From a virus, in IMG/VR virus record IMGVR_UViG_3300042731_005935, positions 19,164 to 83,163 of that record: DNA of 64,000 bases; one strand, given 5' to 3'. The translations under genes were made by a program, and so were the position numbers. The notes under the pieces were generated by a model. It searched no databases, had not been told where the DNA came from, and was given only the letters and a program-made list of their open reading frames with translations. Position 1 is the first letter of the stretch. Every line of letters starts with the position of its first letter. This document shows positions 3,301-64,000 of this stretch, one piece after another.

Positions 3301-3462
3301 AATGATACGAAAAAAGGACAACAAACAAATATTGTAAACGTACTTGATCCGGCTGTGTTTGAGCAGTGGTCAAGCAGTACTCCCGGCCAGCGCAATATTT
3401 TGAATGTATTGTCTCAAAATATCTTCGAAGTCAGGCAGATGGTTTTTGATAACCAAAGTTAA
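367..3462 (+). CDS. Tail tape measure protein (TP901-like core)
   Basis: 1031 aa, Ala/Gly-rich helical; MGKTTRFTASDAA, LPGVLNLAAAG and GLKGTLAGTALR motifs; C-terminal FAEGG. Confidence 0.95.
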   Translation: MTERLDIIVRIRDAAQAGVRSVKKGLAGIGSTASATTGAIRGMYGQLAAVTALFAGGAFLGSAVKTFTQFDDVMRQAGAVTNATKGEMEAMTEQAKEMGKTTRFTASDAANGLRLLGMAGFEASESTAALPGVLNLAAAGSIDLGTAADIATNVLAGFGLEVENLGQVNDVLVQTFTSSNTTITELGEAFKLVGPIAKGVGSNFEDLFAAIGKLGDAGLKGTLAGTALRGAINALLNPTKEEEKLMEGLQKRLGGVALKVKDAEGNFIGFTSIIKQLEDAGLKGDEALKLFGLRAGPGMAALLNQGSEALAELERKINNAGGVSEEIADKMESGIGGAAREAAAAFEAVKIAIGEAFSEDIIKAIRGFRDRMLEVIDIIKQLKKEGTLKAYVDAVSATLNFLGRRIEEITTGFKELTKVIVAGIAAINGDLGIAKEALKDIGSDFDRLLVKRGLLESQTKRESMAIKEQINAIQNQIVISEKKIEQDKEDLNGWRAKIAGSKVYQKQLEKHQRQLQSLYDELDKLNKKKTQIDVKLNIEQIKEEGEYIDYWARSVGKKLEEESKPSGPIGTGGKKVAETIAESIVPDSPTMEALMKAGLTKLTATLQTEAAKIEGQYDQNLISLDEYFNQRRTLIERRIQQELALLRAQAESETDTDKRALINAQIFAKEQQLQTALLQLENERYEEQDRLKQDQLRKEDQLNNLRLKAEKAFQDQKARVAGGPSFGLEATFLEEQAKLQQRQNAELAAIQEFYSQKLQLLRENKAAEAEIEAAFQEQKASIEEQHRLQQKEKIRLTQDQEQRLAEYRLNNIAQTAQGVSQIFTQLYQLTGKKQKEFFYIAKAAAIAEATINVAQGVTKALAQGGFFGIITGTLVAAAGAIQIATIANQSLAEGGLVAGKSPTKSSDDKLINATSGEFMQPVDAVNYYGLGVMEAMRRKSIPKGIFDGFSMPGVRYGTSHFAEGGAVKAQNSGIGDTKNDTKKGQQTNIVNVLDPAVFEQWSSSTPGQRNILNVLSQNIFEVRQMVFDNQS

Positions 3463-3472
3463 GGAGTAAATT

Positions 3473-4786
3473 ATGCCTTTAAATGGAGCAATTCAGACAG
3501 GAACAGTCACCAGTTTCTCCGGTGCAAACGGACTTTTGCAGGCTTTGTTGGATTTTGTGGCTGGAACAAAAGTAACAGGAGCAACAACGACTGGTTCTGG
3601 CTCAGGACCATACACGGCAACCTTGACCACTACTGTTGGTTTAGGATCTGTTATCATCAATTATACAGTTGGCGGGATAGATTTCGAGGCACAAGATGAT
3701 GGTGCGAACGGCTTAAATGATGCAACAGATGGATATATCTCTTCAGGATCGATTGATTATGGAACCGGAGCGTTTACAGTAACTTTTACCACAACACCAG
3801 ATGCAAATCCAACAATTGATTATGTACACGGAGATGATGGTCAGGACTGGGAAATTAAATATCAACGTAATACGAGAGATAGCGATAAGTTAACACCAGA
3901 GGAGCCATTCGGAAGTGATTGTGAGGAGGTTATTCTACACAACCGTGGACTATCTGGTGCTGAGAATGTTCTGATTGGTATCCGTGAATGGAAGTATGTT
4001 GCTGGCGCTGCATATGGTTGGGATCTTACTGGCTATCAGGCATACACGGATGGGATGTATTGGGGAAAGACAATCATTGATGATTTGTCTCTTGATTATG
4101 ATTCATTATGGGATCATTTTGATGATACTCCAATCCTCCCGCTCATTGATGATACAATGTACTACTGGTTTTATAGTAACCGTCAGCGCATAGTTGTTAT
4201 AGTAAAAGTACAGAGCAATTATGAATGTTGTTACATGGGTTTCGCAAACCGCTTCGGGAATCCAGAAGATTATCCATATCCGCTTGTTATTAAGGGTTGT
4301 GGATATGGTAATATCAACAACACAAGTACTTCACAAAGTAACCATTCATATATACCGTATGGACCATCTAATGGAACAGAAATGCTCCATAATGTTCTTC
4401 CTAACAATGCTTGGAGTATAAACTGGGGAACAGGATCGACCTACTTTGCAACATGGCTGTTCCCAACGGCGAATTGGGCAGATACAGGACAGATGTACGA
4501 GGCTCCGGCTAAGAAGGAAGTAATGATGACTCCTGTTATTGGTATGAATGCGCTAATAAATGCTGGACTTTGGGAACTGGATGGAGTATATCATGTTTCC
4601 GGTATCGGTGTCCAATCCGAAGACTACATTCGGGCGCATGATGGAATAAAGTACCGGGCTTTTCAGGATATTGCCAGAATAGAATACGACGATTGGATGG
4701 GTGTGGCAGAAATAGAATTTACTACCACAAGCACTTCTACAACCACAACAACTACTACATCAAGTACCACAACAACTACAGTATAG
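3473..4786 (+). CDS. Virion/tail structural protein with C-terminal poly-Thr/Ser tail
   Basis: Follows the tape measure gene, RBS AAGGAG; beta-rich; ends TTTSTSTTTTTTTSSTTTTTV. Confidence 0.7.
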   Translation: MPLNGAIQTGTVTSFSGANGLLQALLDFVAGTKVTGATTTGSGSGPYTATLTTTVGLGSVIINYTVGGIDFEAQDDGANGLNDATDGYISSGSIDYGTGAFTVTFTTTPDANPTIDYVHGDDGQDWEIKYQRNTRDSDKLTPEEPFGSDCEEVILHNRGLSGAENVLIGIREWKYVAGAAYGWDLTGYQAYTDGMYWGKTIIDDLSLDYDSLWDHFDDTPILPLIDDTMYYWFYSNRQRIVVIVKVQSNYECCYMGFANRFGNPEDYPYPLVIKGCGYGNINNTSTSQSNHSYIPYGPSNGTEMLHNVLPNNAWSINWGTGSTYFATWLFPTANWADTGQMYEAPAKKEVMMTPVIGMNALINAGLWELDGVYHVSGIGVQSEDYIRAHDGIKYRAFQDIARIEYDDWMGVAEIEFTTTSTSTTTTTTTSSTTTTTV

Positions 4787-4790
4787 GAGA
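4757..4790 (+). repeat. 34-bp exact repeat, copy 1 (end of Thr tail + stop + RBS)
   Basis: ACATCAAGTACCACAACAACTACAGTATAGGAGA, identical to 11345-11378. Confidence 0.9.
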
Positions 4791-4798
4791 AGCGAGTC

Positions 4799-5740
4799 AT
4801 GCCGTATGTACTTTCAGAATCAATACACTATAATCCGACTGATACAAAAGAAGCTATTGACTACATACGCCAGTTTGCCTTATCCGTTGGGTGGACCGTA
4901 GATACATGGGTTACCGGAGAGCCGACGCAATTACAATTGTGGTCTCCTGGTTATGTTGCACAAGAACTTTGCTACCGAATCCAGGTAGTGGATGTTGATG
5001 CTCAGGAGCAAACATTATCATTGAAGGGGGTTGTGCCCGGGTATCGTTCAACAAGTTTTTCAGTTACAGACTCAGTATCTACCTGGGGTGGTAACAGTAC
5101 ATCATATTACAACACCTCTCTTACAGCCTCTTTTTTTGATGCGTTATATTTGTATGGTAATAAGCATTTTATTTGCGCTATTTTCCATGTAGATCCGATT
5201 GCTGTGATTACTCTTCAGATTGGTTCATGGGATCTTTATCCAAGTTGGTGGTATTATAGCCCTGGTATAAACTTTGTATACAACCCACAGGATAATTGGG
5301 GGTCTTCCTCTACATATAAATGGTATAATATGACAAGTAATCCGACTCGTTGGGCACCACCAATGTCCCAGAGATGGTCTATTTCGTTAGGGTCCAATGT
5401 GTGGTATGAAGGAGCAAAGAGAGGATCATCAGATTATGCTTGTAACTACAGGCCAGCAGCCGATATTTCTCTTGGTTTAGAAGCAGGAGAATTTAATCGA
5501 GCGAAAGGAATCTTAACCTATAATAGTTATACAGCAAAGAGGATGGCTTTTCAATCATCCTTCTTTGTTAGAAACCCATCACTTGGTATTTGGTACCCAG
5601 TTGGTGTTAGTCCATTTGCATGGATAAATGGTAGGAACCTGACTATTGGAGAAGTAGTTAAGTTTGGAGCAGATGAATACAGATGCTTCCCAGGGGTATT
5701 CAGTACTTATGAACACTGGCAAGCGTATAGGATTGCATAA
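4799..5740 (+). CDS. Virion/tail structural protein
   Basis: Tail operon context; aromatic and beta-rich; coupled to the next gene (TAATG). Confidence 0.6.
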   Translation: MPYVLSESIHYNPTDTKEAIDYIRQFALSVGWTVDTWVTGEPTQLQLWSPGYVAQELCYRIQVVDVDAQEQTLSLKGVVPGYRSTSFSVTDSVSTWGGNSTSYYNTSLTASFFDALYLYGNKHFICAIFHVDPIAVITLQIGSWDLYPSWWYYSPGINFVYNPQDNWGSSSTYKWYNMTSNPTRWAPPMSQRWSISLGSNVWYEGAKRGSSDYACNYRPAADISLGLEAGEFNRAKGILTYNSYTAKRMAFQSSFFVRNPSLGIWYPVGVSPFAWINGRNLTIGEVVKFGADEYRCFPGVFSTYEHWQAYRIA

Positions 5741-6840
5741 TGGCAAATGATGGAGCTATAAACTCAATAATCAATGGGATTGAACGCACTATTGTTCGGA
5801 AGAATTATGAGCAGCAGTATGCTGATAGAACACCTGTGCTTCAAAATCCAATTGTTAATAAGATCTGTGCCGTGTATACAACAATAGGAGAATCTGAGAA
5901 GAGAAGACAAACTCCTGTCATAACACCAGCTCAGGACAATCATGCTGGGCTATTTTCTACAGACCCTGGCGGAGGCTTTTTCTTTGAGAGGGTTTGGGTA
6001 GAACCCTTGCTTTTTGCTTTACAATTTATTACAGAAGATAACGAATATGAAATCAAGATCTGGAACGCATACCGTTCAAAGAATGTTCAAACCACTTCTG
6101 TTATCGTTCTAAATCAGGAAGGTACTAATTTAACATATCCTACACTTCCTGATACAATTAATATTTTTGGTGATACAATTTACACACTTGACGTCTATGG
6201 AGATGGACCACCGCTACAGGACACTTCTTATACCCTTACTATTGACGGTGAGGAATATGTAATTGAAATAACTGGCATTCGGATCATTCCATTTGATCTT
6301 GATCCGAATTGGGATGAAAATTTGCAATTTACATATGATTTTGCTACAACCATCTGGTCAAATGATAGATTCACGGAACAACGGAGACCTTTGAGCCGAG
6401 AAAGTTGGTTTACAATGGTTGCATCTTTTGACGCTTCTGGTGCCCGTAATCGGAAGGTGATGAATCTTCTTGGATATGGAAAAGATAAAGTATTTGGTAT
6501 TCCAGTCTTTACAGAGAAGATGACGCCAGTGTCAGCGGCGGCTGAATCTTCAACTATAATAGTAAATGAAGATTTTACATACTTCTACAATTTAAAGAGT
6601 CGGGCTGGATATATTATCATTGTTGATCATAATGTAGGGCAAGCGGAGATTAAAGTGATATCGAGCCTAACAGGAACAAACCAGATTGACCTAACCCAGC
6701 CGATCTCCGCAACATTTGATTTGAAGTATACATATATATATCCATGCATGTTTGTTATCATTAATTCATTTTCAGGCAATAATATTACGGATGATTTTGA
6801 TAATGTGAAGATAAACTTTAAGGAGTTTAAAAGTGGTTGA
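5740..6840 (+). CDS. Tail structural protein
   Basis: Tail operon context, overlapping start/stop codons. Confidence 0.6.
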   Translation: MANDGAINSIINGIERTIVRKNYEQQYADRTPVLQNPIVNKICAVYTTIGESEKRRQTPVITPAQDNHAGLFSTDPGGGFFFERVWVEPLLFALQFITEDNEYEIKIWNAYRSKNVQTTSVIVLNQEGTNLTYPTLPDTINIFGDTIYTLDVYGDGPPLQDTSYTLTIDGEEYVIEITGIRIIPFDLDPNWDENLQFTYDFATTIWSNDRFTEQRRPLSRESWFTMVASFDASGARNRKVMNLLGYGKDKVFGIPVFTEKMTPVSAAAESSTIIVNEDFTYFYNLKSRAGYIIIVDHNVGQAEIKVISSLTGTNQIDLTQPISATFDLKYTYIYPCMFVIINSFSGNNITDDFDNVKINFKEFKSG

Positions 6841-7471
6841 TAGTCTTCTTGACATCGGTGGTGAACCTGAATTCCCACTATCCATTGATTGGAGTAGCCA
6901 GCCTAGTTATAATTTTCAAATCAGCAGGTACCTATTCGAAGGGCGCGGAACAGCATCTAAGATTGAGGAGAAAAACCCGGAGACACCAATTAGCTTTGAA
7001 GCAAAGTTTTATGTTGGGGACCGTGAGACTGAATATGCTTTTCTGGACTTTATTCATACAACTGTTGGAAGAACAAACCGCTTTTGGCTTAGATATCCAA
7101 AACAGTCGTTTATCCCAACGGAAGGACTTTCAAACGGTTCTATGATTTTAAAGGTTGAACCAAATAATTTTGATCTATTTCACGTTGGACATGAACGGAT
7201 ATATATCCAAACAATTTATGGGGATACAATAACAAGGCATGTTAGTAATGCGACTTATGATGCAACATTTGATGAAATAAGTCTCCAGTTGCTAACTGCA
7301 ATTGATAGAGATATCTCCTTGGATGAATTCTTAATAATTGGGAGATACTTGCTTGTAAGGTTTGATCACGATGACTTTAACATAAATGTTTTAACTGAGG
7401 ATAAATTTGACTTCTCATTAAAGTTTATTGAATTAATAAGAGATTATTCGGATCTTGCGGCTAATCCATAG
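6833..7471 (+). CDS. Tail protein (distal-tail-like)
   Basis: Lies before the DUF2163 hub gene; VGRTNRFW and LVRFDHD motifs. Confidence 0.55.
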   Translation: MVDSLLDIGGEPEFPLSIDWSSQPSYNFQISRYLFEGRGTASKIEEKNPETPISFEAKFYVGDRETEYAFLDFIHTTVGRTNRFWLRYPKQSFIPTEGLSNGSMILKVEPNNFDLFHVGHERIYIQTIYGDTITRHVSNATYDATFDEISLQLLTAIDRDISLDEFLIIGRYLLVRFDHDDFNINVLTEDKFDFSLKFIELIRDYSDLAANP

Positions 7472-7480
7472 GAGTAGAAA

Positions 7481-8290
7481 ATGGCAGAGTATGAAGAAAA
7501 TTTAGAAGCTGTACAACAATCTCCAGTACCTGAGTTTTTTCTATTCAATGCGTCAGGAACCGTTGAAAGATATACATCATACTCCTCTTCTCTTACGTTC
7601 CTTGGACAGTATTGGGCGGCTGCATCTATAACCCGTGGTGGTATTAAGCAAGATTTAAACTTTGGTGTGACAACACTTAACATTACTACTCCGATCACGC
7701 CAAATATTGCAAAGTACATCCCGAATCAGCCGGTTGAACCGGTAGATGTGACAATCTACCGTAGCCATATTGATTACCTTGACCAGTATGATATTTTTTT
7801 CAGAGGTAAGGTTAAATATGTTCAGTTGAAAGGGAAACTGGCATCGGCTCAATGTGAGGCAAAGAATAAGTATATGGCAACGAAGATTCCAAATATTATC
7901 TACCAGTCAAATTGTAACCATGATATATATGATGATGGATGCGGAGTTGACGAATTTGCATACCGTCGAACTGCGAACGTATCAAATATTGTTGGTAGTA
8001 AATTGTATTTCTCCTTCACAGATGGTGGTAGCCCTGTCTCCACCGGATACTTCACAGGTGGAAAAGTTAAATATGGCAATGATCTCCGGTTCATAACCTA
8101 TGCAACTAATACATATCTTGATCTCCATATTCCGTTTGATAGTAAAGTTGCAATTGGTACAGAAGTTTATATATATCCTGGTTGTGATGGCAATCCTGCC
8201 ACATGCGTTGGAAGATATAACAATTTGAATAACTTCTTGGGAATGCCATATATTCCTGAGACAAACCCGGTAATCTGGGGGTTTAAATAA
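7481..8290 (+). CDS. DUF2163/BR0599-family tail hub protein
   Basis: Diagnostic Cys pattern CNHDIYDDGC ... YPGCDG..TC..RYNNLNNFLGMPYIP. Confidence 0.9.
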   Translation: MAEYEENLEAVQQSPVPEFFLFNASGTVERYTSYSSSLTFLGQYWAAASITRGGIKQDLNFGVTTLNITTPITPNIAKYIPNQPVEPVDVTIYRSHIDYLDQYDIFFRGKVKYVQLKGKLASAQCEAKNKYMATKIPNIIYQSNCNHDIYDDGCGVDEFAYRRTANVSNIVGSKLYFSFTDGGSPVSTGYFTGGKVKYGNDLRFITYATNTYLDLHIPFDSKVAIGTEVYIYPGCDGNPATCVGRYNNLNNFLGMPYIPETNPVIWGFK

Positions 8291-8805
8291 TGTGGACGCC
8301 TTATTTTAATGATGATGCCATCTGGAAGAAGTATAGGGATGAAGTATTGTCCTGGGAAGGTACGCCGTATAAGCATTTGAAAATGGTAAAGGGAAGGGGA
8401 GCCGATTGTACAATGTTTATTGGGGCTCAATGGTTGTATATGGGTATCCTTAAGCAGGTGGAGTATGACTACTATCCGAAGGACTGGTACATCCATAAAC
8501 CAACAGAGTTCGTCATTCAACAATTACACTACCATTGGCAGAATTACTCAGCACCGGGTTTTGACATTTTGAAGATAGACACCCGTTATGAGAAAGACTT
8601 CATAAGAGGAGATGTGCTTTGTTTTGCTCTATCTACAACCGGAGTGACGAACCATGCAACAATTTGGTTTGGGTATTTTGATGAGACGAGGCAGCGCCGG
8701 CAAATGTATAATTCAATAAATGGTCATGGAGTCTGCAGAATGACATATGGTAGTTTTTGGAGAGATAAACTGACAACTATTTTCAGGGTGATGAGGGACG
8801 TATAA
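8290..8805 (+). CDS. NlpC/P60-family tail-associated peptidase
   Basis: WEGTPY..KGRGADC and GD..F...NH motifs; GTA-like gene order. Confidence 0.88.
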   Translation: MWTPYFNDDAIWKKYRDEVLSWEGTPYKHLKMVKGRGADCTMFIGAQWLYMGILKQVEYDYYPKDWYIHKPTEFVIQQLHYHWQNYSAPGFDILKIDTRYEKDFIRGDVLCFALSTTGVTNHATIWFGYFDETRQRRQMYNSINGHGVCRMTYGSFWRDKLTTIFRVMRDV

Positions 8806-8806
8806 G

Positions 8807-11374
8807 ATGGTAACTGGACTAATTATAGCAATTGTCGTTCTTGTTGCTGGTTTGTATATGGCATCTATGAATAGGCCTGATACGGAGCAACAAGATATGT
8901 CTCCAAACACCCTGGAGTCATTTAAAGCAACAACAAATCAGGAAGGTGCTGTTGTTCCTCTTGTCTTTGGACAGGCAAGAATATCCGCTAATCTTTTGTG
9001 GTATGGAAATCTTGAGACCGAAGAAGTAACAGAAGAGGTTGAAACAGGTGGTAAGGGTGGTGGCGGCGGAAATAAAGAAGATGTTACTGTTGGATATAGA
9101 TATTACATGGACATATGGGAAGCGCTCTGCATTGGTCCTGGTGTATCAGTACTTGGGACTTTTGTTAATGACAAGTTTGCCGGTGGAGCACTTGGAACCC
9201 TTAATCCAGGTGATACAACTTATTATCCGACGGAACCTGGTAGTTATGCGGCGCCTTTAAACCCGGTCGCACATGTTTTCATGAAACGCCAATATCTTGG
9301 TGAAAATGTAGCATCAGTGCCAACCTATCATTGGATAGTAAAAAGGCTTAGTGATGCGCCTTTAACACATGCTAACCTATCAAACGGAGTTAATCCAGCC
9401 GCAGCTATCTATGATATGTTACGGATGTCTGGTGCCGAACCTTCTGCATTTGTTCTATCTACCTTTCAAGATGCGGCTACTTATTGGTATACCAAAGGAT
9501 ATGGAATTAACATTACTCTCTCCAGGCAGGAGGAGACAAGAAATGGAATTAAAAGGATCTTTACTTATGTTGATGGCAATCTTCGGGTGGATAATCAAGA
9601 CCGCTTTGAACTAATTGCATGGAAAGATACAGATACATATCAGTATACAATTGATCAAAACGATATCAAGGAATTTAACTTCAGGCGACGGAGTTGGTAT
9701 GATGTATATACAGACTTCAGGGCAAACTTTATAGATAGTACACGTTCATATACTCAGCGAACAATCAGAGTGCGCAACACAGCCGTTCGGGATATAACTG
9801 GACAAGATCGCCAACTAACGGTAGATTTGACAGCATTCATTGACGTAAATACAGCAAGTAAACGCCTTTGGGAGATTATGAAGCAAATGTCTTATCCAGA
9901 AGCGGAAGTGTCAATGAAGGTAAGTTGGAAATATATTGGTGTTCGGGTTGGTGATGTTGTTCGTGTAAGCTATAATGATTATGGGATATCAGATCTTGAT
10001 TTCCGCATTATTGGTATAGATATATCCAAAGCTGATTCCAATGAAATAACATGGACTTGTAAGCAACTTTTAAGCACTCTCTTTGATGCAAATTTTGAAT
10101 TAGGAGGAGATCCACAATGGGTTGCTCCAAGTTATTCTCCACAGGTTCCATATGCGGCGCAAGTATTTGAATTACCCTACAATGAATTCACCGGACGTTC
10201 TCCTGCTTATTTACTACTCTGTGCCAGAAAAGGAGCGGAGACTGGCTTCAAGTGTATGTTATCTATAACCGGAACGGATTATGTAAGTAAAGGAACCTTC
10301 GGAACATTCACCCAACATGGTACACTGGATGAGACTTATCCAGCAACAACGTATACAATTGATGATGAAATAGGCGTTCTATATACTCCAGATAGGGAAG
10401 ATCCGCTATTTGATGATCTTGATAGAGCAGACCTTTTTTCAACAATGCGCTTTGTGATTATAGATGATGAAATTATGGCTTTCCAGAATGTTGATTATGA
10501 GGGTGGTGCTGGAGCTATAAGACTGACTGGAATTATTCGTGGAATCCTGAATACTACTATTGCCCAGCATAACTCCGGCGCTCATATCTGGATCACTGCT
10601 CTTCGGAATAATATCTTGAAAAACGTTACATCAACAAATTTTTATATTAAGATGTTGCCATATTTTGGAACAGAAGTGGTTGACGCCTCTTCGGTTAGTC
10701 CAATATCTGTAACCTATGAAGAGAAGGCTGTGACACCTTGGACTCCATGGAATGGTGTTGCAACTCGCTCTGGCTCAGATATCTCCGTTGTCTTGAATAA
10801 TACTACACAAGAGATCCTTGGAGCTGGAATGAGGGCCGCTGAGAATCAAACGCTTGAGGAGGTTCATCAGATAGAAGGCTTCATTCAATATGGTATTAAC
10901 TCCCAGGCAGCACAATACGAATCGGTAACAGCGGAGTTTTCTTATGTCCAGGCTGGTTCACATTATCTTTATATGCGGCAATACCTTGAAGGAAGATATA
11001 CCAACTGGGTAAGTATCTATGTTGGTGCGGCAGATGGTGATTACTATGTAGCTGCGAATCAGCTTACAAATACAGGTTTGGAGAAGGTTCAATGGGGGTC
11101 CCAGGGATTTATCGAAGTAATAAACAGAAATCTTTCAAGACTTAATGATGAATTACTTCTCGTATCGGGACTCCTTGATGTAGACCTTTCTGGCCTTGCA
11201 GATACAAATGCGTTGACGTGGAATGAATCAGCGCAAAAGTTTGAACCACTTGATTTTGAGGTTGCATTTTCAACTACCACGACAACAACCACCACCACAA
11301 CCACTACAACCACAACCAGCTCAAGTTCCACAACCACAACAACCACATCAAGTACCACAACAACTACAGTATAG
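8807..11374 (+). CDS. Tail tip/central fibre protein with C-terminal poly-Thr/Ser tail
   Basis: VVPLVFGQARISANLLWYG, NPAAAIYDML and LTGIIRGILNTTIAQH motifs; ends in a run of about 33 T/S residues. Confidence 0.88.
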   Translation: MVTGLIIAIVVLVAGLYMASMNRPDTEQQDMSPNTLESFKATTNQEGAVVPLVFGQARISANLLWYGNLETEEVTEEVETGGKGGGGGNKEDVTVGYRYYMDIWEALCIGPGVSVLGTFVNDKFAGGALGTLNPGDTTYYPTEPGSYAAPLNPVAHVFMKRQYLGENVASVPTYHWIVKRLSDAPLTHANLSNGVNPAAAIYDMLRMSGAEPSAFVLSTFQDAATYWYTKGYGINITLSRQEETRNGIKRIFTYVDGNLRVDNQDRFELIAWKDTDTYQYTIDQNDIKEFNFRRRSWYDVYTDFRANFIDSTRSYTQRTIRVRNTAVRDITGQDRQLTVDLTAFIDVNTASKRLWEIMKQMSYPEAEVSMKVSWKYIGVRVGDVVRVSYNDYGISDLDFRIIGIDISKADSNEITWTCKQLLSTLFDANFELGGDPQWVAPSYSPQVPYAAQVFELPYNEFTGRSPAYLLLCARKGAETGFKCMLSITGTDYVSKGTFGTFTQHGTLDETYPATTYTIDDEIGVLYTPDREDPLFDDLDRADLFSTMRFVIIDDEIMAFQNVDYEGGAGAIRLTGIIRGILNTTIAQHNSGAHIWITALRNNILKNVTSTNFYIKMLPYFGTEVVDASSVSPISVTYEEKAVTPWTPWNGVATRSGSDISVVLNNTTQEILGAGMRAAENQTLEEVHQIEGFIQYGINSQAAQYESVTAEFSYVQAGSHYLYMRQYLEGRYTNWVSIYVGAADGDYYVAANQLTNTGLEKVQWGSQGFIEVINRNLSRLNDELLLVSGLLDVDLSGLADTNALTWNESAQKFEPLDFEVAFSTTTTTTTTTTTTTTTSSSSTTTTTTSSTTTTTV

Positions 11375-58649: not shown

Positions 58650-60047
58650 TTAATTGATATCAAGTCTTCGTTTAACAACTTCTTCCGCGTTTTTATCTGC
58701 GGGGACACACCTTACTTTTGCCCAGTCACGTAAAGCGTTTATTTCCTGTGACATTGTTTGGGCAATTGGGATAATGAACTGCTTTGACTCTTCGAGGGAA
58801 CATTTTTTCATTCTTGACACGTTGACCAATGCTTCGATTTCAGCACCGGAGAAGTTGCTCATTTCCGGTACACCCTTTGCTTTGATCTTGTGTTTCTTGG
58901 CGTAGAATTGGAGGATGGTCTTCCGTGTTTCATCTCCAGGCAGATCAATATAAAAAGGAGAAGTATCCCAGCGACCAGGCCGGAGATACTCAGGCGGGAT
59001 GCCAATGAAACTGTTTGCAGTTCCGGCAATGTAGACACCTTCAGGGCGGTTTTGAAGAAAATCTAACCATTTGCTTAGTGCTCTTTTGCTTGTACCGTGA
59101 TCGCCATCTCCGCTTCCACCAGCCCCAGCAAATTGCTTTTCAAATTCATCAATTAAGACAAAGCAATCACCAATTGCAGTGATGATGGAAATAACCATAT
59201 CGACATTTTTATCGGTATCACCGATGAACTTGGAGAAAAGTTTTCCCATATCCACAATGAGACCGAACTTTCCAGTTTCGCCGACGATTGCTTCAGCAAG
59301 AGAAGTCTTTCCGCAGCCTGGAGGGCCGACGAATAAAACTCCTTTTGCTGTTGGGTCTTCGATTGTATCAAGTATGAAGTTTTTAACAGCATCATACCCA
59401 ACAACATCGGAGAAATTTCTGTTTGCTGGAATAACTCTCAAGAAACCAGTTTTGGAAAGCGCCTGTGCCTTATATGCGTTAATTGTTTCGGTGTCAATCT
59501 TTTTGTTCCGAATCAGCGACAAGGAGAAAACACTCTCTAATTCCTTGCGTGTCAACCCCTTCGAAAACCGGACGATTTTCTCCAAGTCTTCATCTGTTGG
59601 CATGAATTTTTCTTCCGGAACAATGTGATTGATAGTAGAAACAATTGCTTCCCTACCTGGTAACTCCATTTCCATAACAAGGATATCCTTGTCAAGTTCT
59701 GCTGGGATTTCGATTTTGTGGGAGACAATCACGAAACACTTGCCGGCCGCAGCCCATAGTGGGAAAGCATTTTTGATTGCTTGAATTGGCTGCGGCTTTC
59801 CAATGAACCAGTGATAATTGAAGGCGAACATGACCGAATTGTCATCTCCTTCAATTAGTTTTTTGATCGGTTCCATTGGATCGGGAGATTGAATTAAATC
59901 CCAGTAATGTGTGGAGAAGTTGATTCGATCATAAGACTTGATCATCGGCTCAATTTCTCTTTGCACCCGTTCTGGCTCGTCAGTCTTTAACCAGATTACT
60001 GGGAAACCAGCCCGAAGATAATCAACCATTTCTGTGTGGTGAATCAT
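58650..60047 (-). CDS. Ycf46-like AAA+ ATPase
   Basis: LRAGFPVIW..TDEPER, GPPGCGKT, IDEFEK, TAN, LRPGRWD, FSGAEIE, LRDWA. Confidence 0.88.
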   Translation of the reverse strand: MIHHTEMVDYLRAGFPVIWLKTDEPERVQREIEPMIKSYDRINFSTHYWDLIQSPDPMEPIKKLIEGDDNSVMFAFNYHWFIGKPQPIQAIKNAFPLWAAAGKCFVIVSHKIEIPAELDKDILVMEMELPGREAIVSTINHIVPEEKFMPTDEDLEKIVRFSKGLTRKELESVFSLSLIRNKKIDTETINAYKAQALSKTGFLRVIPANRNFSDVVGYDAVKNFILDTIEDPTAKGVLFVGPPGCGKTSLAEAIVGETGKFGLIVDMGKLFSKFIGDTDKNVDMVISIITAIGDCFVLIDEFEKQFAGAGGSGDGDHGTSKRALSKWLDFLQNRPEGVYIAGTANSFIGIPPEYLRPGRWDTSPFYIDLPGDETRKTILQFYAKKHKIKAKGVPEMSNFSGAEIEALVNVSRMKKCSLEESKQFIIPIAQTMSQEINALRDWAKVRCVPADKNAEEVVKRRLDIN

Positions 60048-60080
60048 AATACTACCTCCTTTAATAATGTGTTATTGTTC

Positions 60081-60143
60081 TGGCTACCATCGTCAGGTCA
60101 TACCCACCACAGTATGACGACGGGTCAAAAGACCCGTTTCGGT
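60081..60143 (-). ncRNA. Type II hammerhead ribozyme HH1 (predicted cut between 60119 and 60118)
   Basis: ACC GAAAC GGGUC-UUUU-GACCC GUC / GUCAUAC-UGUGGUGG-GUAUGAC CUGACGA U GGU AGCCA. Confidence 0.93.
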
Positions 60144-60154
60144 ATTATTCTCCC

Positions 60155-60529
60155 TTAATATATGGTTAACTTCATTTGGATATCGCCGTTTTGCTGTTCG
60201 ATTGTGATATTATCCCAAAGCGTGGTATCGATGTTTTGCTTCACCACCTCCATGTTGTAATCTTGGAGCAGATCGCCAAATTGATCCATGCTGCCTGTTT
60301 GACTTCCGAAATTATCATAATGGATTCGTCCTTCTTCGTCGATGATTAAAGGATACCTCCATTTGGATAACTCGATCTTGGCGACGCCTGAATGGGTCTG
60401 GTCGCGGTAGAATTCTCCGGTCACCTTGCCGTTTGCAACTTGCGTGAAAGTAATTCCTTTTCCAAGGCAAACTTTCTTTAGGGAATTCAGATCGGTGATT
60501 TTGTGTTTGAAAATGGATATGTGGCTCAT
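60155..60529 (-). CDS. DUF1257 (Ycf35-like) protein
   Basis: MSHIS....ITD...L..; lies with DUF2997 and the Ycf46-like ATPase. Confidence 0.7.
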   Translation of the reverse strand: MSHISIFKHKITDLNSLKKVCLGKGITFTQVANGKVTGEFYRDQTHSGVAKIELSKWRYPLIIDEEGRIHYDNFGSQTGSMDQFGDLLQDYNMEVVKQNIDTTLWDNITIEQQNGDIQMKLTIY

Positions 60530-60981
60530 GCTTTACTCCTTTTCCTCATAATGAATTGATCCCCAGAAACACCTGGATGGAATTGAGTCGGCCAGTGGCA
60601 AACAAGTTCGAAGCCATGCTTTTCTTCAAATTCTTGGATTATGGAAAGTAAATCCTTTGACTTGATTTTAAACTTTTTCGAGAAGTCAATTGGCATCGAC
60701 CATGTTCCGTTGCCGTCTGCAATTCCCCCTTGAACATCTCCCATATTGATATGGAAGCATAACATGGTGATTTTATTTTTTGCCATCTTTACCCCTTTTT
60801 TTGTTATTGGTTCAACCCATGTTTCAAGCGGGAAGTGGCAACGTTCACCACCAAGTCCTTCTCTTCGGAGTAGTTTGAGGACTTCTTCCGCTTGTTCCTT
60901 GGTATCATGTTTATCGGTTGTCATATCATTATAGAATCCGTGACATGGATCCCATTTAGCACATGATTTCCAATTTTTCAT
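60526..60981 (-). CDS. Hypothetical protein
   Basis: RBS GGAGGT. Confidence 0.55.
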   Translation of the reverse strand: MKNWKSCAKWDPCHGFYNDMTTDKHDTKEQAEEVLKLLRREGLGGERCHFPLETWVEPITKKGVKMAKNKITMLCFHINMGDVQGGIADGNGTWSMPIDFSKKFKIKSKDLLSIIQEFEEKHGFELVCHWPTQFHPGVSGDQFIMRKRSKA

Positions 60982-60991
60982 AGAACACCTC

Positions 60992-61204
60992 CTATCCGCA
61001 CCAGCCAGAGGGAAGACCGTCAGTTCCGCAGATGATCTGCTTTTCTTCTTCCTCATAGTAAGAGGGTTTGAGGTTGTGTTCCTCGGGTTCGCCAAAGATC
61101 CGTTTCAGGAAAGCAGTTTTCTCCAGACACTCACTACCTTTAAATCCGGTTGCTTCTGCTTTCACCGAGCCATCCTTTCCAAACGTAATAACTACCTGTC
61201 TCAT
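60992..61204 (-). CDS. DUF2997-family protein
   Basis: ITFGKDGSVKAEATGFKGSECLEKT..L...G......KPSYY. Confidence 0.8.
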   Translation of the reverse strand: MRQVVITFGKDGSVKAEATGFKGSECLEKTAFLKRIFGEPEEHNLKPSYYEEEEKQIICGTDGLPSGWCG

Positions 61205-61231
61205 GTTTTTTCTCCTTTCGTGTTAAGTTTC

Positions 61232-61295
61232 TGGCTCCATCGTCAGGGTATGACCACCACGTCATACCGACCGGGAAGTATTTCCCGGTTTCGGT
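61232..61295 (-). ncRNA. Type II hammerhead ribozyme HH2 (cut 61269/61268)
   Basis: ACC GAAAC CGGGAA-AUAC-UUCCCG GUC / GGUAUGAC-GUGGUG-GUCAUACC CUGACGA U GG AGCCA. Confidence 0.93.
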
Positions 61296-61304
61296 TGAGT
61301 TCTC

Positions 61305-61505
61305 CTAAAGTTTTGCCGTGAGGTGCTCTGCGGCTTTCATGATAGCAGGACAAACCCAGTACAGAAATCCAAATCCGAATATACCAAGAATAGCAGAAAT
61401 AACAATAGGTGTTAAACTTCTTCTCCTGTTAGCACTTACAAATCCGCAAAGGACGCATAAAGCGGCAAAAAAATATGCCAGCATATAAAACGTTCCGATG
61501 CTCAT
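61305..61505 (-). CDS. Small 2-TM membrane protein
   Basis: Two hydrophobic segments; RBS AGGAG. Confidence 0.65.
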   Translation of the reverse strand: MSIGTFYMLAYFFAALCVLCGFVSANRRRSLTPIVISAILGIFGFGFLYWVCPAIMKAAEHLTAKL

Positions 61506-61515
61506 TTCCTCTCCT

Positions 61516-61794
61516 TTATTTAATGTTGAAATAATCAGTTATTGCCAAAGTGCCCAAAATATCTCCTTCAATATTGTTTTCTTCTCTGATATTATATTGG
61601 AAACAGATCATATAACGTCCGTCCTCTAATTCTATTCCGGTGCAACAATCCGTCCAACATTTTTCACTGCCGCAATATTCAATTAAATGGGCGTTTCCAT
61701 TATGTCTTTCGATTGCTCTTTGAAGAAGTTGGTGGACCGCATTGGTCAATTTCTCCTCATCAAAATTTTCTGGAAGTATCATATGTTTAAACAT
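61516..61794 (-). CDS. Hypothetical protein
   Basis: RBS GAGGAG downstream of HH3. Confidence 0.65.
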   Translation of the reverse strand: MFKHMILPENFDEEKLTNAVHQLLQRAIERHNGNAHLIEYCGSEKCWTDCCTGIELEDGRYMICFQYNIREENNIEGDILGTLAITDYFNIK

Positions 61795-61823
61795 GTCTTC
61801 TCCTCTTGTTTTTTCATTCTAAG

Positions 61824-61890
61824 TGGCTACCTTCGTCAGGTCGTGGTCACCAACCACGACGACCGTGGAGAAGTATTCCACGGTTTCGGC
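61824..61890 (-). ncRNA. Type II hammerhead ribozyme HH3 (cut 61861/61860)
   Basis: GCC GAAAC CGUGGA-AUACUUC-UCCACG GUC / GUCGUGGU-UGGUG-ACCACGAC CUGACGA A GGU AGCCA. Confidence 0.93.
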
Positions 61891-61891
61891 T

Positions 61892-62437
61892 TCATAAATC
61901 TTTAATTATTTTAAAATTATCAATTAAATTTAGATAATCCTTCAGATGCTTCGGATTGTTTTTATGGGTATTTTTGACTTGCTTCTCAAAACTCTTCAAT
62001 GTTCCGTGAAAGCAACCGGTAATTATTTGTATATCATCACCAATCCAGTAAAAGGTTACTTGGTCATTCCTACTGCCAATTGGTTTGCTGACATATCGTT
62101 GCGGATTTGATTTAAATAATGTACAACTATAGCAACTATAGCAACTACAGCAACCATAGCAATCATGGCAACCATAGCAATCATGGCAATTATGGCAATT
62201 ACAGCAACCATAGCAATCATAGCAATCATGGCAATCATAGCAATTATGGCAACCATGGCAATCATGGCAACCATGGCAATTACAGCAACCATAGCAATCA
62301 TGGCAATTATGGCAATTATGGCAATCATGGCAATCAGCTAACGAGTTTGAATATATTATTGCCATTGCCTCTGTAGTAGTTTTTGCATTCCAGGAATTGT
62401 TACTGTCATCAATCCATCTTTCGTTTAATTTCTTCAT
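61892..62437 (-). CDS. Cys-X-X repeat protein
   Basis: About 24 CXX units encoded by a 9-bp tandem repeat (about 62122-62332), then an IGSRND...GCF.GT...F domain. Confidence 0.75.
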   Translation of the reverse strand: MKKLNERWIDDSNNSWNAKTTTEAMAIIYSNSLADCHDCHNCHNCHDCYGCCNCHGCHDCHGCHNCYDCHDCYDCYGCCNCHNCHDCYGCHDCYGCCSCYSCYSCTLFKSNPQRYVSKPIGSRNDQVTFYWIGDDIQIITGCFHGTLKSFEKQVKNTHKNNPKHLKDYLNLIDNFKIIKDL

Positions 62438-62462
62438 TTCATTCTCCTTTAATATGTGTTAT

Positions 62463-62527
62463 TGGCTATCATCATCAGGAGTAAGGCACCACCCTTACTC
62501 GACCGGGAATTACTTCCCGGTTTCGAC
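62463..62527 (-). ncRNA. Type II hammerhead ribozyme HH4 (cut 62501/62500)
   Basis: GUC GAAAC CGGGAA-GUAA-UUCCCG GUC / GAGUAAGG-GUGGUG-CCUUACUC CUGAUGA U GAU AGCCA. Confidence 0.93.
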
Positions 62528-62528
62528 T

Positions 62529-62732
62529 TCATTGCAATTTGCTCAAGTTGACCGTGATTACCTTTTCTTCTTTAGGGGAGTACCATTGTGAATTACCTGA
62601 CACCCATTGGGTTGAATAGCAATAATGGCCACGGTTTGTATCCACAAGATGTTTTGCTGCCCGATTAATATTTTCTTCGTATTCATCCCTCGGATTCGAA
62701 TATCTTTCGAGCATTTTGGTTGCCGTTTTCAT
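62529..62732 (-). CDS. Hypothetical protein
   Basis: Coupled to the upstream ORF; stop codon abuts HH4. Confidence 0.6.
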   Translation of the reverse strand: MKTATKMLERYSNPRDEYEENINRAAKHLVDTNRGHYCYSTQWVSGNSQWYSPKEEKVITVNLSKLQ

Positions 62733-62977
62733 TATTTTTCTCCTTCCAGAACTCGTTTCCAGTTTTTGTAGAAATCCATTGCCGCGTCAGCATTCTTGAA
62801 TTGGAGATAGATAGCATTTTTAATGGTTGGTACTCTATCCCACCTATCCAATTCTTTGTATTTCTTTTTTATACTTTTGAATGTTTCTACGGCTACACTG
62901 AAACCAACTTCTGAATCGAAATAAACTAAAAGTATTTTTGTTTTCTTCATGTAAAAATCAACATACTTTGCTTTCAT
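62732..62977 (-). CDS. Hypothetical protein
   Basis: RBS AAGGAG downstream of HH5. Confidence 0.65.
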   Translation of the reverse strand: MKAKYVDFYMKKTKILLVYFDSEVGFSVAVETFKSIKKKYKELDRWDRVPTIKNAIYLQFKNADAAMDFYKNWKRVLEGEK

Positions 62978-63005
62978 TTCGTTCTCCTTTTTAATTGTAT
63001 TGTTC

Positions 63006-63072
63006 TGGCTACCATCGTCAGGTCGTGGTCACCAACCACGACGACCGTGGAGTAATACTCCACGGTTTCGGC
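63006..63072 (-). ncRNA. Type II hammerhead ribozyme HH5 (cut 63043/63042)
   Basis: GCC GAAAC CGUGGAGU-AUU-ACUCCACG GUC / GUCGUGGU-UGGUG-ACCACGAC CUGACGA U GGU AGCCA. Confidence 0.93.
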
Positions 63073-63504
63073 TTATTCGCAGTATGGAAGTGGATCTGCT
63101 TCGTAAGTAATCGTTCCGCATTTTTTACAATATTCGATTGGTTCACCGGCAAATCCGTTTGATTCTCTTAATTTATGAGAACCACAATTTGGACATTTTA
63201 CTCCGGCCGCTTTCAACCGTTTATCAATGATATACTCTCGATGCATATCCATAAACAGTTTAATTGGGTTATGTCCAAAACGAATATTGATTTTCCATAT
63301 GTAGATATGGAGACTAGTATAAGGATCTTTCCAACTGCCGGAGAATCCGATCCGAAACAATTTAAGATCTTGCCAAGAATGGGCGTTTCCATATCTCCAC
63401 ACCTCAACAAGAGTTCTGCCGTTATGTTGAAGTAACTTTGCCATTTGGATATGAGGAATTCTCCATTTTATCCACAGGTAAATTCTTTTTACTTTTTCTT
63501 TCAT
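63073..63504 (-). CDS. Hypothetical protein with C-terminal Zn ribbon
   Basis: CPNCG...CKKCG; RBS AAGGAG. Confidence 0.65.
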   Translation of the reverse strand: MKEKVKRIYLWIKWRIPHIQMAKLLQHNGRTLVEVWRYGNAHSWQDLKLFRIGFSGSWKDPYTSLHIYIWKINIRFGHNPIKLFMDMHREYIIDKRLKAAGVKCPNCGSHKLRESNGFAGEPIEYCKKCGTITYEADPLPYCE

Positions 63505-63528
63505 GTCTTTTCTCCTTTTTAATGTTAT

Positions 63529-63594
63529 TGGCTATCATCGTCAGTACCATGGCACCACCCACAGTAGACGGGCCCCCCGCAGGCCCGTTTCGAA
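63529..63594 (-). ncRNA. Type II hammerhead ribozyme HH6 (cut 63567/63566)
   Basis: UUC GAAAC GGGCC-UGCGGG-GGCCC GUC / UACUGUGG-GUGGUG-CCAUGGUA CUGACGA U GAU AGCCA. Confidence 0.92.
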
Positions 63595-63759
63595 TTATTT
63601 TAAAACAATATCTCCCGAAGTGATTATATAATAAGCTTTGCTTTCGACTAATTTTTTAGCTGTTCTAAGATCAATCAGTCCAATGTCCCGACCACGTTTA
63701 TCAAGTATATTAATATTATCGCCGAGTAAATTATCTGGATTCATCATTGCTTGATTCAT
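63595..63759 (-). CDS. Hypothetical protein
   Basis: RBS GAGG; stop codon abuts HH6. Confidence 0.55.
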   Translation of the reverse strand: MNQAMMNPDNLLGDNINILDKRGRDIGLIDLRTAKKLVESKAYYIITSGDIVLK

Positions 63760-63787
63760 GATTTTACCTCTCTTTAAGAAAGTTTTT

Positions 63788-63988
63788 TTAAACAAATCCC
63801 TCAAGTTCAGCCACGAACTCTTCCGGAGTCATCCCACACTCAAAACTTTCATGGGCGTTCATGGGTTGGATGCTATCGTTATAGGGGTCGATGTTGGCAC
63901 CAATAAGTTGCTGAACCCTTTTCCACCATTTTCCAAAGTCTCTATAATACAACTCCGCATCATTGAAAATCTGTTTAAATAATTTCAT
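63788..63988 (-). CDS. Hypothetical protein
   Basis: RBS AGGAG at the window edge. Confidence 0.6.
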   Translation of the reverse strand: MKLFKQIFNDAELYYRDFGKWWKRVQQLIGANIDPYNDSIQPMNAHESFECGMTPEEFVAELEGFV

Positions 63989-64000
63989 TGTTTTTCTCCT

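Follow-up and report, generated by a model that had tools for sequence, protein, structure and literature searches.

The hammerhead array

Eight type II hammerhead ribozymes lie between the first genes of the replication arm of an uncultured tailed phage, and their most likely function, to which we give a probability of about 0.75, would be the self-processing of a polycistronic early messenger RNA (mRNA). The phage has a genome of 83 kb and comes from a wetland metagenome. We analyzed a 64,000-nt stretch of its DNA (the window), which spans positions 19164-83163 of the 83,163-bp IMG/VR record IMGVR_UViG_3300042731_005935 (99% complete according to CheckV). The original prediction, read from the letters of this DNA, had placed six type II hammerheads on the coding strand. 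When the entire window was scanned with Rfam on both strands at gathering thresholds, exactly six matches were returned at those places, all to Hammerhead_II (RF02276, cut-off 37 bits) and all on the - strand, with scores of 41.6-54.8 bits (6/6 above cut-off) and E-values of 1.5e-8 to 4.3e-5. The predicted cut sites and the units between them (524, 542, 640, 592, and 1150 nt, with 1-3 genes each) proved exact. No other Rfam family reached gathering level in the window, a hammerhead model of our own (R1, built from the phage's eight copies) found no further copy there at E <= 1, and ARAGORN found no tRNA genes. No other repeated intergenic elements were found in window positions 40000-64000. 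None of 14 control genomes matched RF02276.

The prediction had also guessed that the array continues beyond the window edge, and a search of the whole record revealed two more copies in the flanking sequence. A 24,930-nt contig, separately assembled from a wetland metagenome run that may represent the sample of origin, covers window positions 63023-64000 and continues into the first bases of the record, and its extension includes the complement of the second extra hammerhead (by-eye comparison). Because this contig joins the end of the record to its start, the genome must be circular or permuted, with the two extra copies directly upstream of the six. The same contig reveals that three bases (TAA on the + strand) are missing from the IMG/VR record where its end meets its start. 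The full array therefore consists of eight hammerheads in about 4.9 kb, all above the Rfam cut-off (41.6-56.2 bits), and has two additional upstream units, one of 280 nt and one of about 493 nt (490 before the three bridging letters are counted). Its first copy lies in the 5′ leader, 3′ of about 1 kb without a convincing open reading frame (ORF). At E <= 1, Rfam gave nothing further in the 1.9-kb upstream locus beyond chance-level hits.

All copies share one architecture. Every copy follows the order that had been claimed for the six, namely the 5′ strand of stem II, GAAAC, the stem III hairpin, GUC, the stem I hairpin, CUGANGA, one extra nucleotide, the 3′ strand of stem II, and a GCCA tail. 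The copies are compact (67-79 nt) and form the expected three-stem junction, in which loops cap stems I and III and stem II is open. The claim of an intact catalytic core holds throughout: none of the eight copies departs from CUGANGA, GAAA, the A15.1-U16.1 pair, or GUC, and the core positions C3 U4 G5 A6 N7 G8 A9, G12 A13 A14, A15.1-U16.1, and H17 are all as the hammerhead fold demands. Outside the core the copies differ considerably. HH2 and HH4 (copies are numbered as in Table 1) are 90% identical and have an identical run of 33 nt in common, and the remaining pairs of copies are 51-75% identical.

Sequence variation among copies preserves pairing. We aligned 42 matches (31 distinct) from this phage and six relatives, and 90.4% of cells were paired, compared with 60.4% in shuffles. 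Pairing was complete in stem III (100%), nearly so in stem I (98%), and lower in stem II (65.6%), where the inner two pairs hold and the outer two are often unpaired. Changes on both sides were seen in 17/22 pairs (42 copies, 31 distinct). The covariation score was 0.747, compared with 0.176 in shuffles (0/500 reached it) and at most 0.114 with slid partners. These pair counts and covariation agree with the earlier observation that stems I and III vary yet pair, and minimum-energy folds with about 40 nt of flank on each side retained both stems in 8/8 copies. The reported covariation of stem II was borne out as well, since among the eight genome copies its second pair occurs as C-G six times and as U-A twice. 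Pair 10.1-11.1 is G-C in 8/8 of the phage's own copies; across the 31 distinct copies this position (columns 4 and 112) has C-G in 29, U-G in 1, and one gap.

Two further features bear on activity. The loop of stem I is GUGGUG (UGGUG in HH2 and HH4), and in 8/8 copies its UGGU can form a pseudoknot with GCCA in the 3′ tail (GCUA in the first copy). Over the 31 distinct copies the pseudoknot helix is 84.8% paired and one pair changes on both sides, while the copies of relatives have other complementary loop/tail pairs (by eye). The core, topology, short stem II, and 4-bp UGGU/GCCA pseudoknot are those of the known type II hammerhead with a loop I/3′-tail pseudoknot (RF02276; crystal structure, PMC11300833). 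Unlike the RF02276 consensus, all eight copies carry one extra nucleotide between A9 and G10.1, which is absent from most copies of relatives. It is U in 7/8 and A in 1/8 (HH4), and C or G in 0/8. In the chrysanthemum chlorotic mottle viroid hammerhead, cleavage is 3-4 fold faster with an extra U at this place and moderately slower with A, and an extra C or G does harm (PMC3705267, which cites De la Pena and Flores 2001). Judged from sequence, the window elements are true type II hammerheads with a pseudoknot between loop I and the 3′ tail, and they are predicted to be active.

The placement of the copies is regular. All eight are intergenic and co-oriented with the genes. Each begins -1 to +10 nt from the preceding gene's stop codon and ends 19-30 nt ahead of the next start codon, and the spacer between hammerhead and gene is A/C-rich and G-poor with AGGAG at its end. 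Genes within one unit overlap or are 10-28 nt apart. Consensus scans of the - strand found no terminator-like sites in the array, only weak promoter-like hits between genes, and a single promoter-like site, also weak, that precedes the first copy by about 90 nt. On the + strand, at window positions 63566-63590 and record positions 64-80, the complement of stem III is followed by GTTTCG and a T-rich stretch, which together resemble a terminator. The hammerheads may, in addition, halt antisense transcription.

Elements at the same junctions in related phages

Related phages punctuate the same junctions, in some cases with other structured elements. The array DNA itself has no match among cultured phages: blastn with 4 kb of the array gave zero matches among 50,697 phage records, and tblastn with the AAA ATPase that follows the array gave only distant hits in cultured phages (23-27% identity). 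As relatives we took nine IMG/VR contigs whose ATPase is 43-50% identical; three of them (L011-L013) are near-identical phages and should be regarded as a single lineage. Whole-record searches with RF02276 at E <= 0.01 gave 14, 10, 9, 7, 5, 4, 3, 0, and 0 matches per relative (9, 9, 9, 7, 5, 1, and 3 of these above cut-off, respectively, in the seven with matches). Hammerheads thus occur in 7/9 relatives, in 3-14 copies, and all 52 matches are on the ATPase strand. In L011-L013, 16/17 alignment rows represent just three sequences, each present repeatedly and the most frequent in 8 rows, and most copies are letter-identical, which points to recent spread or gene conversion; the copies of this phage have diverged instead.

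The junction directly before the ATPase is punctuated in 9/9 relatives. Here a hammerhead is present in this phage and seven relatives (that of L017 was detected solely by reading the sequence), L016 has a pistol-like element, and L015 has a hairpin with a conserved internal loop. Junctions around the conserved genes are likewise punctuated in every relative. The DUF2997 gene, the 124-aa gene, and the ATPase (window 58650-61204, - strand) occur together in all lineages (L009-L017). In L010 and L014 the DUF2997/124-aa pair follows the ATPase rather than preceding it, and a punctuation element stands at each block boundary regardless. Of the indirect evidence gathered here, what speaks most for a processing function is that different structured elements stand at the same junctions.

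The elements of L016 suggest a permuted pistol ribozyme. Six pistol-like elements occupy the corresponding junctions of this phage (IMGVR_UViG_3300014204_000018, 6482-11557, + strand). Four were scored, at 21.5-29.1 bits, all below the Rfam pistol cut-off of 34.5. The elements have the linker, P2, P3, and the GU site and lack the 5′ P1 hairpin. They carry a variable hairpin on the 3′ side whose invariant loop, GCAAGA, is complementary to an invariant UCUUGU junction, as if the first hairpin had moved 3′.

The element of L015 (IMGVR_UViG_3300033148_005588, 4819-9777, + strand) is a long hairpin in seven strong copies and one weak copy, which sits between the stop codon and the ribosome-binding site at junctions that hold hammerheads in this phage. 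It is more than a simple duplex: two covarying stems enclose a conserved internal loop, CUGCUA opposite NAUGGAG; 92.2% of cells are paired, compared with 78.7% in shuffles, and 16/26 pairs change on both sides. A pattern scan (18 stretches) and a model built from eight copies were used to search for it elsewhere, and folding kept four stretches: L136 (identical with L015), L137, L138, and L143. The other 14/18 pattern stretches were dropped after folding as probable chance or coding matches. L137 is an unrelated 54-kb contig with five copies on one strand (1694-8060, - strand), and single copies occur at L138:2475-2554 and L143:10471-10542. The hairpin is absent from our window and gave no match to Rfam ribozymes at E <= 1. 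Compared with the K-turn, sarcin-ricin motif, hairpin ribozyme, and hatchet, it resembled none convincingly. It could be a nuclease site or a new ribozyme.

Type II hammerheads are also found more widely in IMG/VR. A strict type II pattern scan gave at least 118 stretches; among the matches listed, 49 records were searched with Rfam, of which 41 match at E <= 0.001 and three have six or more matches (6, 9, and 11).

Genes and genome layout

The array heads one of two divergent arms. The + strand arm contains tail genes, including the tape measure gene, and the - strand arm encodes the ATPase, DUF3150, a helicase, a primase, a DnaB-like helicase, a clamp loader, a DNA polymerase, and SSB. Both diverge from an ORF-poor region. 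Because the array heads the - strand replication arm, which diverges from the + strand tail arm, the label "early operon" in the original prediction seems fair, with early timing likely rather than observed. The ORF-poor region (record 366-1440, - strand, upstream of the window end) is about 1 kb long (1075 nt), lies between the divergent arms and 5′ of the first hammerhead, and contains T-rich direct repeats of type TTTTTGTCAGTTTTTTGA. It gave zero matches to Rfam, and promoters, operators, or an origin may lie inside it.

Twelve genes lie inside the array and encode proteins of 54-181 aa, among them one DUF2997 protein, one with a weak zinc ribbon, and one with a run of Cys tripeptides; the rest are matchless (Table 1). 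A 9-nt tandem repeat encodes the middle of the 181-aa protein, which consists of about 24 Cys-(His/Tyr/Cys)-(Asp/Asn/Gly/Ser) tripeptides, and this repeat yields false promoter-like hits. Of 15 proteins tested by tblastn, only four match the nine relatives: DUF2997, the 124-aa protein, the ATPase, and one (426 aa) of two proteins encoded downstream of it. The second downstream protein (70 aa) and the other 10 array proteins have no such match in them. The genes of the array therefore appear to change fast.

Table 1. Hammerheads of the array and the genes between and after them (window positions unless the record is named)
Feature	Position	Strand	Description
Two extra hammerheads beyond the window	record 365-287 and 82-16	-	From whole-record search
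Unit after upstream copy HHb	63595-63988	-	ORFs of 66 aa (63988-63788) and 54 aa (63759-63595); no family match
HH1, type II hammerhead	63595-63526	-	52.9 bits; 3′ product begins at 63566; stem II of only 2 pairs
Unit HH1-HH2	63073-63504	-	One 143-aa ORF; weak C-terminal zinc-ribbon match, below Pfam cut-offs
HH2, type II hammerhead	63073-63003	-	44.9 bits; 3′ product begins at 63042; 90% identical to HH4
Unit HH2-HH3	62529-62977	-	Overlapping ORFs of 81 aa and 67 aa
HH3, type II hammerhead	62528-62460	-	46.8 bits; 3′ product begins at 62500
Unit HH3-HH4	61892-62437	-	181-aa protein; phrog_15341 (unknown function), 5.9e-19
HH4, type II hammerhead	61891-61821	-	41.6 bits; 3′ product begins at 61860; extra nucleotide after CUGACGA is A
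Unit HH4-HH5	61305-61794	-	ORFs of 92 aa and 66 aa; no family match
HH5, type II hammerhead	61296-61229	-	51.9 bits; 3′ product begins at 61268
Unit HH5-HH6	60155-61204	-	DUF2997 protein of 70 aa (PF11211, 3.1e-11), 151-aa ORF, and 124-aa ORF; first and third conserved in relatives
HH6, last hammerhead of the array	60144-60078	-	54.8 bits; 3′ product begins at 60118; AAA ATPase start codon 30 nt on
AAA ATPase, 465 aa, first gene past the array	58650-60047	-	Followed on the same strand by DUF3150, helicase, primase, and DnaB-like genes

Strain variation at the hammerheads

Close strains may differ by whole gene units with breakpoints at the ribozymes. A search for sequencing runs that contain the stretch listed four, all of DNA and none of RNA. 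We compared DNA contigs of a salt-marsh run where they cover the window; they are 90-99% alike and have a depth of about 4-5. One contig of 598 nt joins 62504 to 62738 and 62973 to 63518. It begins with the 3′ half of HH3, continues with 24 other letters that form a different, still pairing stem III, and then enters the end of the 81-aa gene, so that the 67-aa gene is skipped. From the start of the 81-aa gene it passes through 17 other letters to just 3′ of HH1, and the 143-aa gene and HH2 are skipped. A second contig departs from HH4 into a stem I like that of HH1. These joins suggest that whole gene units differ between close strains, and, coming from single low-depth metagenome contigs, they are a lead and not proof.

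Function of the array

We favor self-processing of a polycistronic early mRNA because the elements are true pseudoknotted type II hammerheads of the active kind, are co-oriented with the genes and intergenic, and head the early/replication arm. In this mechanism RNA polymerase would transcribe the unit and each hammerhead would fold and cut itself after GUC, and the transcript would fall into pieces of 280-1150 nt, each with 1-3 closely spaced or overlapping genes. At the 5′ end of each piece would stand a 5′-OH and the 8-bp hairpin of stem I, fastened to the GCCA tail and followed by an unstructured, A/C-rich leader of 19-30 nt with an AGGAG ribosome-binding site. At its 3′ end, about 30 nt past the stop codon, would stand the stem III hairpin with a 2′,3′-cyclic phosphate. 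The upstream message would thus keep its stop codon and a 3′ hairpin, and the downstream message would gain a 5′ hairpin and a free ribosome-binding site. The likely benefit would be insulation, in that blocks of genes could be translated and degraded independently of their neighbors and of the 5′ leader. We observed the family membership, intact cores, paired and covarying stems, placement, and conserved punctuation of junctions; cleavage in vivo, a single transcript, and this benefit are inferred.

Several observations weigh against this interpretation. Stem II comprises 2-4 pairs over all copies, with no more than 2 in HH1 and HH5 and 3 in a further four, and one of the four pseudoknot pairs is a G-U, so some copies may be slow. 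A short stem II is usual in pseudoknot-type type II hammerheads. Perreault et al. 2011 examined an active hammerhead with a one-pair stem II (PMC3088659). In addition, the stop codon abuts the ribozyme, and a terminating ribosome would unfold a copy that is still uncut. Two complete relatives (G007 and G008) have zero hammerheads, and hammerheads as such are therefore dispensable in this phage group. Finally, the alignment used for pair counts was fitted to the model structure, which biases it toward pairing (the margin over shuffles is large), and the promoter and terminator scans, being crude consensus scans, are weak evidence.

A different possibility, which we hold tentatively, is that hammerhead and leader chiefly, or also, form the joint of a gene-cassette system whose repeats would give homology for the gain, loss, or swap of small early genes; cutting might then be the original job and shuffling a consequence. 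It would account for the salt-marsh contig that lacks the 67-aa gene and the 143-aa gene with HH2 and breaks at HH3 and just 3′ of HH1, and for the second contig that switches from HH4 to an HH1-like stem I. The scarcity of array proteins with matches in relatives (4/15), the 90% identity of HH2 and HH4 with their 33-nt run, and the letter-identical copies of L011-L013 fit it too, and an analogous cassette system has been described in T4-type phages (PMC2839356, PMC4122927). However, the strain evidence consists of single contigs at a depth of about 4-5 with 90-99% likeness, six of the eight copies are only 51-75% alike, a similarity that would serve homologous recombination poorly, any conserved intergenic repeat would produce an equal pattern without being selected for it, and intact catalytic cores are left unexplained. 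It is unlikely, in our view, that the ribozymes instead destabilize, with constitutive or regulated cutting marking early messages for rapid decay (a shut-off of host-takeover genes) or setting expression through differing rates. The array is indeed limited to the first 4.9 kb, where genes are small and poorly conserved, and ends when the replication genes are reached, rates may differ with the 2-4 pairs of stem II, and Perreault et al. 2011 raise regulated cleavage for phage hammerheads (PMC3088659). Yet both new ends are predicted to carry stable hairpins after the cut, and the copies, at 67-79 nt, have no visible ligand-binding or switch domain. A 5′-OH is moreover a poor entry for 5′-end-dependent RNases, which also counts against destabilization.

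The range of copy number among relatives (0-14) and the apparent recent spread of identical copies in L011-L013 would be expected of selfish or relic repeats that occupy intergenic gaps without benefit to the phage. We consider this very unlikely given that copies lie on the gene strand in 8/8 cases here and on the ATPase strand in 52/52 cases in relatives, that their spacing to the stop codon and ribosome-binding site is fixed, that cores are intact in 8/8, and that the same junctions are punctuated, even by other elements, across phages with ATPases only 43-50% identical. Least probable of all is that excised units are circularized, by an RtcB-type ligase or by the ribozyme itself, into circular mRNAs as in viroids and retrozymes. 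The end chemistry and half-ribozyme ends would follow from type II topology and the stem II strands are similar between copies, but a hybrid stem II between neighboring copies would have just 1-3 pairs (hand comparison), and Perreault et al. 2011 report that spliced or circular RNAs were sought and none detected (PMC3088659).

Self-processing and cassette exchange could also be combined. Somewhat speculatively, ribozyme and leader may together be a general, exchangeable "punctuation mark" that serves both as an RNA processing site and as a gene-cassette joint. If so, the hairpin of L015 would represent either a new class of self-cleaving RNA or a target on which a specific nuclease acts, and phage early regions would be built from self-insulating, swappable units.

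Comparison with known systems

Both the arrangement and the processing idea have been known since 2011. The original prediction knew of no characterized operon organized in this way and allowed for prior reports. Its suggestion of novelty is not supported: Perreault et al. 2011 describe clustered hammerheads flanking genes in prophages and propose transcript processing to operon- or gene-length mRNAs (PMC3088659). They also report complete in vitro cleavage of three triple arrangements, one of them also in E. coli, and genes of variable identity within the clusters (PMC3088659). A 2019 review by Weinberg and colleagues repeats the processing idea, calls for more work, and describes the bacterial roles of self-cleaving ribozymes as "largely elusive" (PMC6765202). 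A search of a literature library for large arrays (six or more) of phage hammerheads or for their in vivo processing found nothing there beyond Perreault et al. 2011 and reviews. The question of why bacteria and phages keep self-cleaving ribozymes has a clean test bed in this array, with its eight well-formed copies, fixed spacing, and defined limits (the 5′ leader on one side, the replication genes on the other), with relatives that have other elements at the same junctions, and with two relatives that have no hammerheads.

The early transcript of phage T7 offers a parallel in mode of processing. In T7, host RNase III cuts the early polycistronic mRNA at intercistronic double-stranded hairpins and the units keep terminal hairpins. 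The array resembles it in that an early transcript would be cut at intercistronic structured sites with terminal hairpins kept, and differs in that the RNA itself is proposed to cut, whereas T7 needs a host protein enzyme. The sister phage L015 has long hairpins at the corresponding junctions. RiboJ-type insulators are engineered, single elements in which a hammerhead 5′ of the ribosome-binding site strips away the variable 5′ context, so that a hairpin and a standard leader remain. Here too a hammerhead lies upstream of the ribosome-binding site, in a natural array in place of a single engineered element.

Viral early regions provide two further comparisons. The HHphage hammerhead of haloviruses HF1/HF2 is located 13 nt upstream of a helicase gene, the first of the early genes, and a mapped transcript 5′ end falls <=3 nt from its cut site (Perreault et al. 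2011, PMC3088659); unlike the array, it occurs only once, its host genome is that of an archaeal virus, and its core is a variant. In the promoter-stem-loop (PeSL) cassettes of T4-type phages, repeated motifs bound small variable early genes and mark sites of gain and loss between close strains, much as here, but PeSLs are promoter/terminator motifs and the present elements are ribozymes (PMC2839356, PMC4122927).

A close likeness is to the clusters of Perreault et al. 2011. These share with the array same-strand hammerheads flanking single genes or short variable blocks, the type II pseudoknot form, and the proposed function (PMC3088659). Unlike the triples tested there, the array has eight copies in 4.9 kb, heads the early arm of a complete lytic-type genome, and starts in the 5′ leader. 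It adds size and regularity to the 2011 arrangement and no new principle; what is new, as leads from comparative sequence, are the exchangeable elements at shared junctions, the uncatalogued hairpin, and the apparent cassette-wise differences between strains.

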